From an uncultured Candidatus Saccharibacteria bacterium (GTDB lineage: Bacteria; Patescibacteriota; Minisyncoccia; Phycocordibacterales; WO2-35-19), in assembly GCA_964440955.1 (NCBI GenBank), contig CAYTTP010000003.1, forward strand, positions 1 through 56,332: a stretch of DNA of 56,332 nt, given 5' to 3'. Numbering within the stretch: position 1 is the first letter of the stretch; each line of letters opens with the position of its first letter. Made by a program: the position numbers and the translations under genes. This document shows positions 24,118 through 55,061 of this stretch, piece after piece. The notes below the pieces were generated by a model. It was not told the origin of the DNA. It did no database searches and saw only the letters and a list, made by a program, of their open reading frames with translations.

Positions 24118-26832
24118 ATGACGCCATTTAACCATTTTACTACCAAAGCCAAAGAAGCCATAAAACGTGCTCACGAGCTCGTTATTGAACGAGGCCAAAA
24201 CCACGTCGGACCACTCCAGCTTTTGACTGCTCTCATCTTGCAGGAGGAAAGTATGGTTGCCTCTATTTTGGATCGCCTGGAGGTTGATACCATCCTTCTC
24301 ACCGATTCTCTTTTTGATGCGATGGAGGGCGCGATTGTTGGCAATACTTCTACTCCTTCATATCAAATTTATTTGACGCCAGAGCTTGCGCATATTATCG
24401 AGCATTCTTCTAAGGTGGCTTCTTCGATGAACGATGAATTTGTCTCGACCGAGCACCTCTTTATTGCTTGTCTAGAAGTGCCAAGTCAGGCGCGCGACAT
24501 TCTTTCCAAATTCAAAATCGAAAAAGACAAAGTGATGTTTTTGATCCAAGAAATAAAAGAAGGGAGAGTCAACGAACCAAAACAGCCGCAAAAAAACAAA
24601 ACTCTGGTCAAATATACTCGCTCGCTCACCAAGCTTGCCAAAGAAAACAAGCTTGACCCGGTGATTGGTCGCGATGAGGAAATTTCCCGAATCATTCAAA
24701 TACTTTCACGTAGGACAAAAAACAATCCAATCCTCATCGGTGAGGCTGGGGTAGGCAAAACTGCTATCGCTGAAGGTCTTGCTATGCGCATGGCAAACGG
24801 TAATGTGCCTGAATCATTGAAGGACAAAGAAATAGTTTCCCTAGATTTGGGGTTGCTTGTCGCGGGTACCAAGTTTCGTGGTGAGTTTGAAGAACGTCTA
24901 AAAAATATAATCAAAGACATTGAAAAGTCAGAGGGCAAGATTATTTTGTTTATCGATGAAATCCACACTATCGTTGGTGCCGGTAGTGCTGAAGGTTCGC
25001 TCGATGCCTCCAATATGCTGAAGCCTCCACTTGCAAGAGGTGAGCTAAGGGCGATTGGCGCGACCACTATCAAGGAATATCAAAAACATATCGAAAAGGA
25101 CCCGGCCCTTACTCGTCGCTTTCAACCGGTGTATGTTTCCGAACCTTCAGTTGATGATGCGATCACTATTTTGCGTGGACTCAAAGAAAAGTACGAGCTC
25201 TATCACGGTGTCCATATAACTGATGATGCTATCAAGTCGGCTGTCAATCTTTCTTCTCGATATATTGCTGACAGGTTTTTGCCGGACAAAGCAGTTGACC
25301 TCATCGACGAAGCTGCTTCTCACCTCAAAATATCGTTGGAAAATATGCCACCTATTTTGCAAGAAACTAATTCTAAAATAGTAAAGCTTGAAATTGAGCG
25401 CGAAGCTTTGAAAAAAGAAGCAGAAAACAAAAATAGCAAAGCCAAAGCCCGCCTCCAAGAAATTGAAAAAGAGGTAGCTGATCTTAAGGAAAAGACCGGA
25501 GAGATAGATTTGAAATGGAAAAACGAAAAGGAGACTGTTGGTGAAATAAAGCGAATCAAAAAAGAGCTTGAATCTGCTCGCCTTGAAGCTGAGGCTGCTG
25601 AAGCACGGGTGGATTTGGGTCGAGCCGCTGAAGTACGCTACGGTAAGATACCAAGCTTAGAAAAGGACCTCGATACCAACGTCAAAAAACTCAAAAAACT
25701 CCAAAGCTCTCGTCGTATTTTGAAAGAGGAAATAACTGAAAATGATATTGCCAATATTGTAGCCAAATGGACGGGCATCCCAGTTTCTAGAATGCTTGAA
25801 GAAGAGGCTGAAAAACTTTCTCGAATGGAAGAAAATTTGAAAAAGAGAATCGTCGGTCAAGATGAAGCCGTCCAAAAAATTTCTGACACGATCAAACGCT
25901 CTCGTGCTGGTATTTCTGATCCAAATCGTCCGATCGGCTCCTTCATCTTTTTGGGTCCAACCGGAGTGGGAAAGACAGAGCTTACCAAAGCACTTGCCGA
26001 ATTTATGTTCAACGACGAGAAGGCGCTCATCCGTGTTGATATGTCCGAATTTATGGAAAAACACTCGGTTTCCAAGCTTATTGGCGCACCTCCTGGCTAT
26101 GTTGGTTTTGACGAAGGGGGTGGTATCACAGAGATGGTGCGTCACCGGCCGTATTCGATAGTTTTGTTCGACGAAATCGAGAAGGCTCACCCTGAAGTGT
26201 TTAACGTGCTCCTTCAAGTGCTCGACAATGGCCGACTTACCGACTCAAAGGGTCGCACTGTCAACTTCAAAAACACGATCATTATTATGACTTCAAATAT
26301 TGGTGCTCAATATATCGATAAGATGGAAAGGATGGGCTTTGGTGAAAATAGGAGTGATGAAAAAAATTATAATGATGTTAAAGACAGGGTGCTTGAAGCA
26401 ACCAAAGACTATTTCCGTCCGGAGTTTTTGAACCGCATTGACGACATTATTGTCTTTGATGTTTTGCCGATTGAAGCGATTCGCGATATCGTCCGCATTC
26501 AAGTTGATTTGGTCAAGGAGCGATTGGCTCAAAAAGAAATTTCTCTCGAGCTTTCTTCTGAAGCTTATGAATATCTTGCGAAAGAAGGTTACAATCCACA
26601 GTATGGTGCTCGCCCACTCAAGCGTGTAATCCAAAATAAGATTTTAAACAAAGTTGCTTCTCTCATTATAAGCAAGGGGATCATGAAAGGTGGCACAGTT
26701 TCTATTTCTGTCAAAAAATCAACCAATGCTTCAGGACCTGATGAACTTGTCTTTGATATCAAAAAAGGCCGTCGGGGTTCAATCATCGAAGCCTCTCTTC
26801 TCGACGACACCCCAAAAGAAACCGTGGTGTAA
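24118..26832 (+). CDS. clpB: ATP-dependent chaperone ClpB
   Basis: Two AAA+ modules ([15 protein letters not shown]; [16 protein letters not shown]), long middle coiled-coil, 904 aa. Confidence 0.9.
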
Positions 26833-26904
26833 AAATGGAAAGGCGTTCACTAAAAGTGAACGTCGATATAAAGTACTTATAATTCCCTAGAACACCACTT
26901 ATGA

Positions 26905-27090
26905 GCACGTGAGAGAAAGATGAACGAACATTGGTGGTGTCCTAAGCCCGAAAGTGGCGAGGGTAAGGCCGCTTGAGATCCAAGTCGGACTACCAGCATA
27001 CCCCCAAGATCTTCTGGTTTACTCTAAAGAGAGTATTCCGCTCCATCGTGTGACGATGAAGGCTGTTTTTCGACGTCTCTCACAGGTCCA
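26905..27090 (+). ncRNA. candidate retron non-coding RNA (msr-msd-like) upstream of the RT
   Basis: 8-bp inverted repeats gtgagaga (26909-26916) and tctctcac (27076-27083) bracket roughly 160 nt of GC-rich structured sequence containing the hairpins acaccac/gtggtgt and catcg-tgtga-cgatg. Matches the a1/a2 retron architecture; not verified. Confidence 0.3.
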
Positions 27091-27135
27091 AGCCGGACTG
27101 TTTTGATTGTAGCATGTTTTTATATATAAGTTTAG

Positions 27136-28056
27136 TTGTATAAATCAAATAAAATAGGTTATCCTCTGTTCGGAGGCCTTGTGGATAAACCTGCATTTGA
27201 AAGGTATTTTCTGAGAGATGTAAATCATCAGAGTGGTAGGGTGAAAAATCGAGAAATTTTTGCTCCAAACGATTCAATGCGTGAGGTGCAAGAGGGTATA
27301 GTGGCCAAACTTCGGTCTTTGGAGATTGAGATGCCGAGCGCGACTGGTGGTGTCAGGAATGGTTCGCCAGTCAATAACGTCCTCAAACATTGGTCACCTT
27401 ACAATAAGAGTGCGAGATACTTTTTTCTGCTTGATCTAGCATCTGCTTACAAGAATGTCCTTGTGAGCGATATGTTAGTTGAACTGAAGAGGGTGTGGCC
27501 ACATGATTGCGACGAGAAGTTTGTTCAGAGTGTTATGAATCACTGCTTGATACCGGGTGAGGGTTTGGCAACTGGAGGTAACGCCTCGCCAGATATTTTC
27601 AACCTATGTATGGAGATTTCGATTGATCGGCAAATACGCTCGTATGCCGAATACAACGATCTCACCTACACTCGTTATCTCGATGATCTGACTTTCTCAT
27701 CTCCTTTTCCGATAGGTAAGAGGAAGAGGAATACGATCATCAAGATTCTCACTGAAGCTGGTTGTGTCGTTAACCATCAAAAGTCTCAGGTGCTTGATAT
27801 CGAAAAGCATCATGTGGAAATAAATGGTATCGGCTTGCGTCGTAGCGGACACTTCTTCATGCCTAGTCGGGTCTTGGATGAGTTAAAAAACTTGCTCTAT
27901 CGGGCAACTAGAGGGGAGTCCATTTCCGATTCTCTCATTCAAGGCAAGATGGGCGGGTTCATCTATCTTAGGAGAAAAGGCTTGCTTGCTCTGACCGAGA
28001 GAGAACGTAATATCCTTCGACGGTACGAGCAATATCTGCCGTTGCGCCGGGGTTAA
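27136..28056 (+). CDS. reverse transcriptase, retron-type (RT domains 1-7 with YTRYLDD)
   Basis: RT motifs REIFAPNDSMREVQEGI, SATGGVRNGSPVNNVLKH (NAxxH-like), FLLDLASAYKNV, GLATGGNASPDIFN (QGxxxSP-like), YTRYLDDLTF (retron-like YTRYADD), VEINGIGL (VTG-like). The likelier start is GTG at 27181 after GGAGG; the ORF track begins at TTG 27136. Confidence 0.75.
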   Translation: MYKSNKIGYPLFGGLVDKPAFERYFLRDVNHQSGRVKNREIFAPNDSMREVQEGIVAKLRSLEIEMPSATGGVRNGSPVNNVLKHWSPYNKSARYFFLLDLASAYKNVLVSDMLVELKRVWPHDCDEKFVQSVMNHCLIPGEGLATGGNASPDIFNLCMEISIDRQIRSYAEYNDLTYTRYLDDLTFSSPFPIGKRKRNTIIKILTEAGCVVNHQKSQVLDIEKHHVEINGIGLRRSGHFFMPSRVLDELKNLLYRATRGESISDSLIQGKMGGFIYLRRKGLLALTERERNILRRYEQYLPLRRG

Positions 28057-28130
28057 ATCCTCGGCGCTCTGTTTTTAATAGTGTGTAAAAATTTTGAAAT
28101 ATCTGGTATTGTGTGCGGAGGAGGTGAACT

Positions 28131-28535
28131 ATGTCCAGTATCTCGAATAGAGAAATGACATTTGTTGTAGCTGTTCTGTACTCTTTGCCCGAAAAGTGGC
28201 GAGGGGTTGGCCGTTCTTTCTCGTTTGAGGATGTGCAAGATAGGCTACATCTTGCTTGGCATAGACTCTATCAAGAAGGATTGCTTGGGGAGTTTGGTGA
28301 ATCGTTTTCTTTTGACGCTCTTTGTGGCTCAGACAGTCTTGGGCAAGCACTTCGCACAGCTGCGGTAGATGGGCTCATAAGGATCGGTGGCTCTGATATG
28401 GCTTATCATGTTGATGTCCTGAAGCCTGACCAAATTGATCGTATGTTAGAGTCGTGCGTAATAGACCGAAGTGCCGTGACTACTGCTGTCAAACGTCTCG
28501 AAGCTATTCTCGAAGAGAAACCCTCCCCGGCTTAG
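28131..28535 (+). CDS. hypothetical small acidic protein downstream of the RT (candidate retron accessory/effector)
   Basis: 134-aa ORF with strong GGAGGAGGTG ribosome-binding site, 75 nt after the RT stop; no recognisable family. Confidence 0.45.
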   Translation: MSSISNREMTFVVAVLYSLPEKWRGVGRSFSFEDVQDRLHLAWHRLYQEGLLGEFGESFSFDALCGSDSLGQALRTAAVDGLIRIGGSDMAYHVDVLKPDQIDRMLESCVIDRSAVTTAVKRLEAILEEKPSPA

Positions 28536-28597
28536 AGTCGGGGAGTTTGGTTTGTAATAAACTAAAAATCTGTTAAAATCTCAAAAGTAATAATATT

Positions 28598-28681
28598 GCG
28601 TCGGTGGTAGAGTGGTCAATTACAACAGACTGTAAATCTGTCGCCCATTGGGCTACGCAGGTTCGAATCCTGCCCGGCGCA
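28598..28681 (+). tRNA. tRNA-Tyr (anticodon GTA)
   Basis: Acceptor gcgtcgg/ccggcgc, anticodon arm acaga-ctgtaaa-tctgt, long variable arm cgcccattgggctac, T-arm gcagg-ttcgaat-cctgc; no encoded CCA. Confidence 0.8.
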
Positions 28682-28872
28682 CAAAATAAAACCCAGCTTC
28701 TGCTGGTGTTTTATTTTGTGCGCCGGAAGTGCAGCTTTGTGTAGCAAAGCGTAGCACGGATTCGAAAGGCGGAAGAAATTTTTTAGCAAAAAAATTTCTG
28801 AGCCGGGGTCGCGAGCGATTTTGCTTGACTGAAGCAAAATCGACTTGTGACCGAATCCTGCCCGGCGCACCA
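28682..28872 (+). repeat. tRNA-associated repeat unit (Tyr locus) ending in a copy of the tRNA-Tyr 3' end with CCA
   Basis: Long hairpin gcgcacaaaataaaacccagc/gctggtgttttattttgtgcgc, then ...gagccggggtcgcgagcg-gattttgc..gcaaaatc-gacttgtgacc followed by cgaatcctgcccggcgcaCCA (28852-28872). The gene itself reads ...ggcgcaCAA. Confidence 0.65.
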
Positions 28873-29285
28873 CTTCGCTCTGTTATCACAGAGCTTCGCG
28901 GTGCAAGCACAAAAAGATCCCCAGAGATGGTGGTATTTTTGTTATAATTAAGCGAAGTGGTCCCGCGGAGCTAAACCCAGCAAAGCTTTAGCGAAGTTGG
29001 GTAGCGGAGTGGGGCACAAATAAAATTATATGAAAAAGACGCCTTGAGAGGCGTCTGGATGAGGGTGGGGAGTCAGGCTGCCGCAGGACGCGGATTATCC
29101 TATTCTCATAGGACAGACCGCTATTTGCCTATCTCTACCCACCCTCAAGCGGTGAGGATGAAGAGAGCTTCACGCAGGGCGCTTGCGCTGGCACCTGTGT
29201 GGGGTGGGTTGCTCAATCTCCATCCTCACGCATTTACTATTATAGCAAATGTTTGATTGCCTGTCAATAAATTTCAGTGGAAAGA

Positions 29286-30584
29286 TTATTTACCAATCAG
29301 GGCTTCACTCCATTTGTAAATATTGCCCGCACCCATAAGGACGATGCAGAGAGGTTTATCTGATTTTATCGTTTCTATTTCTCGTTTTAGTTCCCCAGCA
29401 TTTTCTACTGTATTAGCTTCAGTATGTTTATTGACTGCTTCAGCAAGGGTTTGGTTCGTCACTACACCTGTGGCATTTTCCTTATTTATATATATAGGCG
29501 CAATGAAAACTTTGTCGGCAATTTTTAGCGATTCGACAAAATCGTCAAAAAACATTTTGGTTCGGAGTTCTTGATGTGGTTCGAAAACACAGACAAGGGT
29601 GTGTTCTGGGTATTCCCCCTTTAGAGCTGAAAGGGAAGCGGTGATTTCGGTTGGGTGGTGAGCATAATCCGTATAAAAAATATTTCCATCTTTTTCGTCT
29701 ACCTTTTCGAGTCTTCTCCATGTGCCTCTAAAATCTTTTAGAGCATTTTCTGATTTTTCTTTTGGGATGTTTAAACTTTCAGTTGCCGTAATAGATGCTT
29801 TGGCGTCTAAGATATTGTGCTTCCCTGGTACTAAGAGTTTTATATTCAAATCATTTTTTGTGTAATCCAAAACTTTAGCTTGAACATTTTTCAAAACTGG
29901 TTCGATGTTTGGGTGGTTGGGGTCGGTCACGATAAACCCATCTCGACCAACTTTTTGGGCTATTTCTTCAAAAGCATTTTGAATGTCGGCAAGGTCTTTG
30001 TAATAGTCGAGGTGATCAGCTTCAATATTGGTGATCACTAAAATAGAAGGGGAGAGATTTAAAAATGATCTTTTATATTCACATGCCTCGACGACCAGAT
30101 ATTTTGATTTGCCAGCGACGAAGTTTGTGTATTCTTGGGCCTTTGAATCAATCATTTTCGAACCAACAACGATAGTCGGGTCGAAGCCTGCTTCTTGGAG
30201 AATGTGGCCGATCATGGCAGTGGTCGTCGTTTTGCCGTGAGTGCCAGCTATCGCGATTGTATACATTTGCTTTGAAAGTTCTCCTAAAGCTTGAGGATAG
30301 GTGATACAAGTAAGACCTCGTTTGCGAGCCTCGATAAGCTCTGGATTTTCCTCTGTTATCGCTACGGTATAGATGACAATCTCGACATTATTACCAATAT
30401 TTTCGGGCCTTTGACCGATCATAATTTCAACTCCTATTTTTTGGAGTGCCTCGGTTATTTCTGAAGCAGAATTATCCGAGCCGGCTACCTTTTTGCCTTG
30501 CAAGACAAGCATTTTGGCGATGGCTGAAATCCCAATCCCGCCAATGCCTATAAAGTGATAGTTGTTTTTTGAAAAGATATCCAC
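29286..30584 (-). CDS. murC: UDP-N-acetylmuramate--L-alanine ligase
   Basis: FIGIGGIGISAIA, AIAGTHGKTTTTAMI, Mur ligase central and C-terminal domains. Confidence 0.9.
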   Translation of the reverse strand: MDIFSKNNYHFIGIGGIGISAIAKMLVLQGKKVAGSDNSASEITEALQKIGVEIMIGQRPENIGNNVEIVIYTVAITEENPELIEARKRGLTCITYPQALGELSKQMYTIAIAGTHGKTTTTAMIGHILQEAGFDPTIVVGSKMIDSKAQEYTNFVAGKSKYLVVEACEYKRSFLNLSPSILVITNIEADHLDYYKDLADIQNAFEEIAQKVGRDGFIVTDPNHPNIEPVLKNVQAKVLDYTKNDLNIKLLVPGKHNILDAKASITATESLNIPKEKSENALKDFRGTWRRLEKVDEKDGNIFYTDYAHHPTEITASLSALKGEYPEHTLVCVFEPHQELRTKMFFDDFVESLKIADKVFIAPIYINKENATGVVTNQTLAEAVNKHTEANTVENAGELKREIETIKSDKPLCIVLMGAGNIYKWSEALIGK

Positions 30585-54729: not shown

Positions 54730-55061
54730 TCCGGGATAGCTCAGCGGTAGAGCGAGCGACTGTGTCGTGACGCAGCTTCCAAAAGAAATTTTGGTTGAAA
54801 AACGAGGTGAATTCGGGGGAACCCCAAGTGGGCAATCCCGAGCCAATCCTAAATTAAAGAAAGATATTGTTGTGTAAAAACTTTAATTAAGGCAGGTGTA
54901 GAGACTATTCCGAAAGGAAGTACTTACTCCGTATTTCGGAGTCGGGAAGCGCCTCGCTCCTAATAGCCAATTTGGTTAAAGGAGATGATATAGTCCATAC
55001 TTCTAGTAATAGAAGAGAATATGTAATCGCTTGGTCGTAGGTTCGATCCCTACTCCCGGAG
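54730..55061 (+). tRNA. tRNA-Asn (anticodon GTT) interrupted by a group I intron in the anticodon loop
   Basis: 5' exon 54730-54763: tccggga-ta-gctc-agcggta-gagc-g-agcga-ctgt. 3' exon 55024-55061: taa-tcgct-tggtc-gtagg-ttcgatc-cctac-tcccgga-g. U1:A72 and G73 fit Asn; the 5' splice site follows a U and the intron ends in G. Confidence 0.7.
54764..55023 (+). other. group I self-splicing intron (~260 nt) within tRNA-Asn
   Basis: Conserved core elements R-like GTAGAGACTA (about 54897), S-like GATATAGTCC (about 54988), P-like AATTCGGGGGAA; the internal guide GCAG can pair with the exon end CTGT (U-G at the splice site); no ORF inside. Confidence 0.6.

Follow-up and report, generated by a model that had tools for sequence, protein, structure and literature searches.

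A retron-type reverse transcriptase gene and an opposite-strand structured RNA in a Candidatus Saccharibacteria genome: a putative two-part module of CPR bacteria

RESULTS

Genetic organization between clpB and tRNA-Tyr

The stretch of DNA analyzed here (the window) comprises 56,332 nucleotides (nt), positions 1 to 56,332 of contig CAYTTP010000003.1, from GenBank assembly GCA_964440955.1 of an uncultured Candidatus Saccharibacteria bacterium. Between clpB and a tRNA-Tyr gene it carries a non-coding spacer, a gene for a small reverse transcriptase (RT), and an open reading frame (ORF) of 134 codons, ORF134 (Table 1). An earlier interpretation made from the letters of the DNA (the sequence-only reading) had described this segment as a compact retron-like locus between the two flanking genes, and possibly a defense system. 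Its placement of the module agrees with comparative data: in a related locus (L075), whose ClpB is 77% identical to that of the window, clpB and tRNA-Tyr are directly adjacent. Our analysis indicates that the locus is probably a two-part, stand-alone retron-like module, composed of a retron-clade RT and a structured RNA encoded on the opposite strand (from about 27100 to 26840), with no effector. The RT belongs to a family that is linked to this RNA across many genomes, and the helices of the RNA are conserved and reveal its strand.

The reverse transcriptase

The mechanically called ORF begins at a TTG codon. The most likely start is instead the GTG at 27181, which follows a GGAGG sequence and gives a protein of 291 amino acids (aa); an independent gene call (P0001) and the N-termini of homologs back this choice. 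Apart from this corrected start, the ORF and its motifs NNVLKH, YTRYLDD, and EINGIGL were found as the sequence-only reading had described them. Retron RTs are distinguished by region X (NAxxH, in which H is the most conserved residue) and region Y (VTG, in which G is the most conserved) (PMC7736814). The window RT carries NVLKH in region X and ING, replacing VTG, in region Y, and thus has both signatures. Residues N66, H70, Y163, D168, D169, and G216 are invariant among the 26 homologs of alignment A1 (the window RT and 25 relatives), whose consensus reads NVLRH and ITG.

Profile searches and structure prediction gave concordant results. The RT matched Pfam RVT_1 at 1e-14. Its best 20 matches among the PADLOC models were all retron RT models, with a CRISPR-associated RT model in 21st place; RT_II-A ranked first (1.7e-23), followed by RT_VI (3e-21) and then by I-B, III-A, and Ec107-like (7e-20). 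Each retron RT model shown was matched by all 26 family members, and no type dominated. A profile of A1 aligned over nearly the full length of the solved retron RTs Ec83, Ec86, Ec78, and Ec67 (7e-35 to 2e-27), compared with 3e-12 for the group II intron RT GsI-IIC, 1.5e-9 for DRT2 (palm only), and 1e-4 for AbiK. The AlphaFold model of the RT had a mean predicted local distance difference test (pLDDT) score of 92, and its best 17 matches in the PDB (Foldseek) were all retron RTs. Because retron RTs are the top matches both by sequence profile and by fold, we judge the enzyme to be retron-type. As the sequence-only reading had proposed, these profile and model comparisons support a retron-clade assignment rather than one to the group II intron, diversity-generating retroelement (DGR), abortive infection (Abi)/UG, or CRISPR RTs.

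Judged by these matches, the RT falls into no known retron type and is about equally distant from all of them. It scored 77.6 bits with the NCBIfam model retron_St85_RT, under the cutoff of 235, and is therefore not a member of that subfamily; the defense-associated RT (DRT) models Drt2 and Drt3a gave 19.5 bits (cutoff 390) and 22.7 bits (cutoff 200). A database search returned 29 RT homologs. All named ones belong to Patescibacteria, Parcubacteria, or Zambryskibacteria, and identity to the nearest non-identical homolog is 51%. Some RTs of the family are longer, at about 400 aa (L024, L023, L026, and L027), and one of these (P0025, L024 2920-4167) ends in a primase-type zinc finger, zf-CHC2 (PF01807), forming an RT-primase-finger fusion.

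A conserved RNA scaffold beside related RT genes

Scans of genomes and metagenomes with A1 yielded 71 loci, of which about 65 belong to the family. With the motif used for scanning, 24 loci of the candidate phyla radiation (CPR) were recovered among 185,579 species genomes. Most loci with available upstream sequence have 300-700 nt of non-coding DNA beside the RT gene. Fourteen loci share a ACCUCAGCGG...CCGCUGA motif and were aligned (A5). The alignment comprises four helices: the hairpins HP-B and HP-C, which stand side by side; the base of a long variable hairpin, GGUUCGGG/CCCGAACC, here called P-msd; and P-x, formed by UCAGCGG and CCGCUGA. Pairing is possible in 84.8% of the alignment cells, against 40-47% (about 44%) when the pairing partners are slid. 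Both sides have changed in 22 of the 33 pairs, including seven of the nine pairs of HP-B, and none of 500 shuffles reached the observed values. The P-msd stem and its variable insert together span 48-117 nt.

A further helix closes the RNA. Its 3' arm lies inside the P-x loop, between UCAGCGG and CCGCUGA, far downstream of the 5' arm. Closing arms of 10-16 bp that pair perfectly or nearly so, with sequences unrelated to each other, occur in about 20 loci; in about half of these, (C)CGCUGA directly follows the 3' arm.

R1, the covariance model derived from A5, detected the RNA next to the RT gene in more than 35 further distinct loci, and all labeled ones are CPR/Patescibacteria. The position of the RNA relative to the RT gene varies. 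Of the loci with the RNA on the RT strand, about 20 have it upstream and about 14 downstream (L010, L015, L019, L021, L044, L048, L049, L051, L053, L054, L057, L059, L061, and L062). Only in the window and in its relatives L001/L002 is it upstream on the opposite strand; all other R1-matched loci have it on the RT strand. Tandem arrays of two or three RNA copies precede a single RT gene in five loci (L009 1645-2815, L045 131-665, L007 2408-2938, L014 2432-2940, and L011 1822-2748). Pairwise alignment of the copies in L045, L007, and L014 revealed a common scaffold (HP-B, HP-C, ACCUCAGCGG, and CCGCUGA) with different variable hairpins and partly different closing repeats. In many loci a terminator-like hairpin followed by a T run separates the RNA from the RT gene. 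The varied position, strand, and copy number of the RNA, together with these terminators, indicate that it is an independent gene and that the RT must act on it in trans.

Other elements were seen at individual loci. The pattern CGCTAGTG-AGAGA ... CTCTCT-CGCTAGTG, in which a direct repeat is fused to a GAGAG/CTCTC inverted repeat, precedes the RT gene by about 100-230 nt at L020/L060 and L064; it gave no R1 match and may be a third RNA variant. In L001 a LAGLIDADG-type homing endonuclease gene (24-1046, weak Pfam match) lies beside the RT-RNA module and has its own promoter-like site after the RNA terminator. A transfer-messenger RNA (tmRNA) gene is located about 500 nt downstream of the RT gene in L041 (3864-4217), and SmpB is among the flanking genes elsewhere; this proximity is probably a coincidence of housekeeping context.

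The window RNA is predicted on the strand opposite the RT gene

The sequence-only reading had noted a GC-rich spacer upstream of the RT gene and, within it, an 8-bp inverted repeat around hairpin-rich sequence, which it likened to the a1-msr-msd-a2 layout of retrons. GC enrichment is present but mild (0.51, compared with about 0.40-0.45 in the flanks). The repeat is exact, pairing GTGAGAGA (26909-26916) with TCTCTCAC (27076-27083) on the plus strand over 8 perfect base pairs, and both arms had been rightly named. By itself it is no better than chance, with a helix score of 20 (hand tally) against 24 for the best helix of the region (z = 0.4 relative to shuffles). It is credible only because L001 carries a compensatory change (GTGGGAG/CTCCCAC) and because the same pattern is seen across the family. 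A structured RNA closed by an a1/a2-type repeat beside the RT gene is thus retained from that reading, but its orientation along the RT strand is not.

Four kinds of evidence place the RNA on the minus strand: the R1 match, the G-U pairs, a candidate extended -10 box, and the terminators. First, the window was searched with R1 with filters off, and the best match (21.7 bits, E ~4.5e-8) was on the minus strand at 27068..27006, spanning HP-B, the CGG linker, and HP-C, whereas the plus strand reached 8.3 bits at most. L001/L002 also matched on the minus strand, at 24 bits, and the minus-strand sequence of the window, CUUCAUCG-ucaca-CGAUGGAG-CGG-AAUACUCU..., is nearly identical to a sequence in L040. 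Second, the proposed helices contain G-U pairs (five in the window, located in HP-B, the long hairpin, and P-x, and three in L001) that are specific to the minus strand; read from the plus strand, the same positions would be A-C mismatches. The 13-bp P-x helix pairs without mismatch on the minus strand but with two on the plus strand. Third, a TGnTAnnnT box is conserved just upstream of the RNA on the minus strand in the window (27114->27106) and in L001. Fourth, likely terminators follow the RNA on the minus strand (window 26862->26844; L001 1126->1103), that of L001 preceding the promoter-like site of the next minus-strand gene. A plus-strand model obtained with RNAalifold from the window and L001 had appeared plausible; it was overturned by the family covariance model and the G-U analysis. 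The comparisons thus predict a minus-strand RNA transcribed leftwards, divergently from the RT gene, with a probable length of about 220-260 nt.

On the minus strand the elements follow the family order: the E1 hairpin, the 5' closing arm, HP-B, HP-C, the long hairpin, and P-x enclosing the 3' closing arm (Table 1). Since the 3' arm sits inside the P-x loop, the topology is that of a pseudoknot. The long hairpin occupies the place of P-msd, and by analogy it may be the equivalent of a retron msd. With the window RNA as query, nhmmer matched only L001/L002, so that its kinship with the larger family is visible through structure alone.

A small hairpin motif of 13-14 nt is present in two copies in this RNA, as CCAAGYCGGACT in the window (26977-26992 and 27085-27099) and as CCCAGACGGATTA in L001 (1223-1235 and 1334-1346). 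The copies are spaced 108 nt apart in the window and 111 nt in L001, and their sequences differ in concert from one genome to the other. E1, at the RNA 5' end, is one of the copies, and E2, in the apical part of the long hairpin, is the other.

ORF134 and the search for a protein partner

ORF134 lies 74 nt downstream of the RT gene on the same strand and has a GGAGG ribosome-binding site, and the sequence-only reading had proposed it as an effector without recognizable domains. It is a real gene. Three homologs with 41-50% identity share many invariant residues with it, and its AlphaFold model (pLDDT 83.5) has a winged-helix-like fold. Searches against Pfam, PADLOC, NCBIfam, and PHROGs found no match to the protein, and a Foldseek search of the PDB found none to the model. 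The lack of recognizable domains therefore holds for the sequence and not for the predicted fold, and PADLOC recognizes the RT, through its retron models, but not ORF134.

The gene is not associated with the RT family. A strong terminator-like hairpin separates it from the RT gene, and a tblastn search of the first 29 RT loci with ORF134 returned nothing. Clustering of the neighboring ORFs of 74 RT loci left only the RT itself in more than five loci, with no conserved partner and no ORF134-like sequence; among 70 flanking genes, mostly housekeeping, no Pfam or PADLOC family recurred. The closest RT locus, L001, has RuvX downstream where the window has ORF134. Conversely, two of the three contexts of ORF134 homologs, L076/L077 and the P0033 contig, lack an adjacent RT. 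In the third, L075, the homolog is beyond the tRNA on the other strand, and the contig ends 27 nt upstream of it and is thus uninformative about an RT. On this evidence ORF134 is an unrelated neighbor and not part of the system. It was rejected as an effector, on a kind of outcome, separation from RT neighborhoods, that the sequence-only reading had itself named as telling against its proposal. The suggested defense role was not supported either, no protein partner being conserved for the RT family.

A similarity of 24 of 27 nt links the RNA gene (26946-26972, GCCCGAAAGTGGCGAGGGTAAGGCCG) with the ORF134 coding region (28186-28213, GCCCGAAAAGTGGCGAGGGGTTGGCCG) at the invariant KWRG motif of the protein, and the minus-strand RNA would be antisense to ORF134 mRNA there. 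An antisense or template relation between the two was considered and rejected: at the scale of the whole window, 13 of 150 shuffles were at least as good (p ~0.09), and L001 and L076 share only AAATGGCGAG. A DGR was also rejected; the RT is of the retron clade, and this sole, non-significant similarity between the RNA and a gene has mismatches that are not limited to adenines.

Other features of the window

The tRNA-Tyr gene is followed (28683-28872) first by a terminator hairpin, then by an inverted copy of the tRNA 3' end (TGCGCCGG, ~28719-28726) and by a partial copy, in direct orientation, of the T-arm and the 3' end of the acceptor (GACCGAATCCTGCCCGGCGCACCA, 28849-28872). L075 has the same arrangement (reverse complement, ~1630-1790), made from its own tRNA-Tyr sequence, so these elements look like a unit that the lineage has conserved and that varies in step with the tRNA. 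At 54754-55016, Rfam RF00028 identifies a group I catalytic intron (78 bits, above the gathering score).

Table 1. Coordinates of the genes, RNA elements, and signals of the locus; positions are those of the window.
Feature	Position	Strand	Remarks
clpB	24118-26832	plus	
Non-coding spacer, ~300 nt	between clpB and RT ORF		
Probable RNA terminator: hairpin and T-rich tail on minus strand	26844..26862	.	just after clpB stop codon
Predicted structured non-coding RNA gene	26838..27100	minus	functional core ~27099 to 26885; ends predicted from promoter box and terminator
P-x hairpin, CUUAGGACACCAC / GUGGUGUUCUAGG	26886..26946	minus	13 bp; arms 26886-26898 with 26934-26946; two minus-strand G-U pairs
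Closing repeat, 3' arm, UCUCUCAC	26909-26916	minus	inside P-x loop; "a1" of the sequence-only reading
Long variable hairpin, GGGGGUA...UACCCUC	26959..27005	minus	position of family P-msd helix; carries E2 (repeat copy 1, 26977-26992)
CGG linker and HP-C hairpin, GG-AA-UACUCU-cuuu-AGAGUA-AA-CC	27016..27040	minus	conserved; R1 match and family alignment
HP-B hairpin, CUUCAUCG-ucaca-CGAUGGAG	27041..27061	minus	conserved; one G-U pair, minus strand only
Closing repeat, 5' arm, GUGAGAGA (RNA strand)	27076..27083	minus	compensatory change in L001; "a2" of the sequence-only reading
E1 hairpin, direct-repeat copy 2, GGTCCAAGCCGGACT (plus strand)	27085..27099	minus	RNA 5' end
Candidate extended -10 box, TGCTACAAT (L001: TGCTAGAGT)	27106..27114	minus	block conserved between window and L001 (alignment A3); putative promoter
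RT ORF as mechanically called, TTG start at 27136	27136-28056	plus	from the open reading frame list
Retron-type RT gene, 291 aa	27181..28056	plus	likely GTG start, 4 nt after GGAGG
Intrinsic terminator-like hairpin, strong	28044..28067	plus	9 bp, 8 G-C, then T run; at RT stop codon, between RT and ORF134
ORF134, winged-helix-like (predicted)	28131..28535	plus	listed as excluded from the system
tRNA-Tyr	28598-28682	plus	

DISCUSSION

Relation to stand-alone and classical retrons

Stand-alone ("orphan") retrons have been recognized in two places, the Retron-Eco5/Ec107-like branch of RT clade 2 and clade 11 (PMC7736814), and these (msr-msd)-RT cassettes are the closest known counterparts of the module described here. 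Both have a retron-clade RT with region X and Y motifs, an RNA alongside it closed by an inverted repeat, and no effector gene, and the Ec107-like PADLOC model is among those that match the window RT. The window system differs from them in the equal distance of its RT from all known types, in its labeled hosts, which are CPR/Patescibacteria, and in an RNA that matches no Rfam retron RNA model.

The RTs of Ec86 (type II-A) and Ec78/Eco7 (type I-A) are the best structural and sequence matches of the window RT, and the RNA layout resembles theirs, with conserved stem-loops followed by a long variable hairpin and an a1/a2-type closure. The closing repeats are present at 8 bp in the window and at 10-16 bp in about 20 relatives. 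HP-B and HP-C correspond in position to the msr stem-loops and P-msd to the variable msd hairpin; from position, we infer that they may be equivalent. Unlike in Ec86 and Ec78/Eco7, the family has no effector, its RNA is off the RT transcript, and the closing 3' arm lies in the loop of another hairpin; no branching G was identified at the closing repeats. The msDNA (multicopy single-stranded DNA) of those retrons has a putative counterpart here by analogy. The third component of most retron types, an effector or a fused domain, was absent from the 74 loci.

By analogy with these systems, the RT would bind HP-B and HP-C, which would play the role of the msr, and the closing inverted repeat would set the priming site beside the template. 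The RT would then copy the variable long hairpin, in the role of the msd, into a small single-stranded DNA. Such a DNA could itself be the functional product, or it could act together with a factor whose gene lies elsewhere.

Several observations weigh against the proposed two-part retron-like module. Retrons typically have msr-msd upstream of ret on the same strand and transcript, an arrangement absent from the window, L001, and the roughly 14 relatives with downstream RNA; in contrast to the co-transcribed upstream msr-msd of classical retrons, the family RNA is a separate unit with its own terminator and a variable position, orientation, and copy number. A conserved branching G or opposing G pair was sought at the closing repeats and none was identified: the repeat flanks of 21 loci show no consistent G on either side, and those of the window are C/U on the minus strand. 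Rfam 15 returned only the tRNA, and no retron msr, from either strand of 26000-29500 at E<=1, and a search of five related loci (E<=0.1) found nothing besides a tmRNA. The folding energy of the window RNA is not significantly below that of shuffled sequences (minimum free energy [MFE] z -1.4 and -1.5 on the two strands), and it favors neither strand over the other. The window type of RNA is known in one close relative only (L001/L002); its helices outside HP-B and HP-C are based on these two sequences, and R1 aligned only HP-B and HP-C there. Finally, two short helices, H2 in the window and H3 in L001, contain one G-U pair each that favors the plus strand; both helices are doubtful.

Alternative explanations

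The module might have no part in defense: the RT-RNA pair could instead be a cassette that is selfish or mobile, or one that these reduced genomes have domesticated for a cellular role. This explanation, which we regard as improbable, is consistent with flanks made up mostly of housekeeping genes (RuvX, IF-2/RbfA, TGT, SmpB, YebC, tRNA synthetase, UvrB, and clpB), with the lack of a consistent defense-island context, with a position that varies among genomes (clpB and tRNA-Tyr being adjacent in L075), and with the LAGLIDADG gene that adjoins the module in L001. The sporadic occurrence, 24 CPR loci among the species genomes scanned, argues against an essential role, however, and no integrase, target-site duplication, or terminal repeats were found. 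Nor are retron RTs known to mobilize themselves.

A second alternative compares the module with DRT2, DRT9, and DRT10 (PMC12039810, PMC12483538, PMC12632851), in which a compact RT is likewise accompanied by a neighboring structured, pseudoknot-type non-coding RNA and, in DRT2 and DRT9, by no separate enzymatic effector. Here a short template in the RNA would be copied by the RT into repetitive, homopolymeric, or gene-encoding DNA, and the effector would be either this DNA or its product. The absence of a conserved protein effector and the independently transcribed pseudoknot-type RNA next to the RT, as in DRT2 (PMC12039810), are in line with this, as are the co-changing 13-14-nt motifs, whose spacings of 108 and 111 nt are both divisible by 3, and the stop-free frame of each repeat unit on the strand antisense to the RNA. 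DRT2, in which copying by rolling circle gives a stop-free gene, requires a repeat length divisible by 3 and one stop-free frame conserved in all homologs (PMC12039810). The open frame is +1 in the window but +0 in L001, despite about 70% DNA identity, and HP-B and HP-C, scaffold hairpins not expected to serve as template, fall within the repeat unit. Across 14 loci, the loops enclosed by P-msd show no preference for lengths divisible by 3, and in many of them every frame is interrupted by stops. When the 108/111-nt unit and these loops were concatenated and translated in six frames, neither a conserved open frame nor a rule of three emerged, and an endless ORF was rejected. DRT2, DRT9, and DRT10 have UG/Abi-class RTs, whereas the RT of this family is of the retron clade, with Drt2 and Drt3a scores far below the cutoffs. 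We give this explanation little credence.

Lastly, a classical tripartite retron, with msr-msd on the RT strand upstream of ret and ORF134 as a new effector, perhaps like the small helix-turn-helix (HTH) partners of type VI, is very improbable, comparative genomics having largely refuted it. In its favor, RT_VI ranks second among the PADLOC models matched by the RT, ORF134 is small, winged-helix-like, closely spaced on the same strand, and equipped with a strong ribosome-binding site, and the symmetric inverted repeat could equally close a plus-strand RNA, but a strong terminator precedes ORF134, which matches no PADLOC model, occurs in none of the 74 RT loci (L001 having RuvX there), is unlinked to the RT in any relative, and has homologs in L076/L077 and the P0033 contig without an adjoining RT, while the minus strand is indicated by R1, by the G-U pairs, and by the terminators.

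Implications for retron biology in CPR bacteria

Retrons have mainly been described in Proteobacteria, Bacillota, and Bacteroidota, where they are three-part defense switches. A literature search for retrons in Patescibacteria/CPR found no report, and neither a 2021 review nor a 2026 metagenome survey reports CPR retrons. What appears to be new here, from the sequence comparisons, are the CPR hosts, an RT equidistant from the known types, an undescribed RNA scaffold that is absent from Rfam, and an RNA gene that is free in position, strand, and copy number. For annotation, the strand of the RNA and the exclusion of ORF134 correct a reading of the kind that defense-finding tools would give.

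It is possible, though doubtful, that the retron-like module of the window represents a CPR-wide class without effectors, in which the scaffold RNAs have transcription units of their own, in any orientation and including arrays of two or three copies with differing variable hairpins, and the RT works on them in trans. In such a class, the RT-made DNA would be the output, and the RNAs would serve as interchangeable cassettes rather than as parts of a toxin-antitoxin switch.

The family forms a coherent set in CPR bacteria, with a new RNA scaffold, no effector, and RNA genes placed with unusual freedom (antisense, downstream, or tandem). By analogy, it would work like a retron. The role of effector-less retrons was raised as an open question by Mestre et al. 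(PMC7736814), and if the RT does make DNA from the RNA, this family bears on what such retrons do. Its very compact RT-RNA pairs (RT ~290 aa) would then be working in trans naturally, which would make them of interest for retron-based genome editing.

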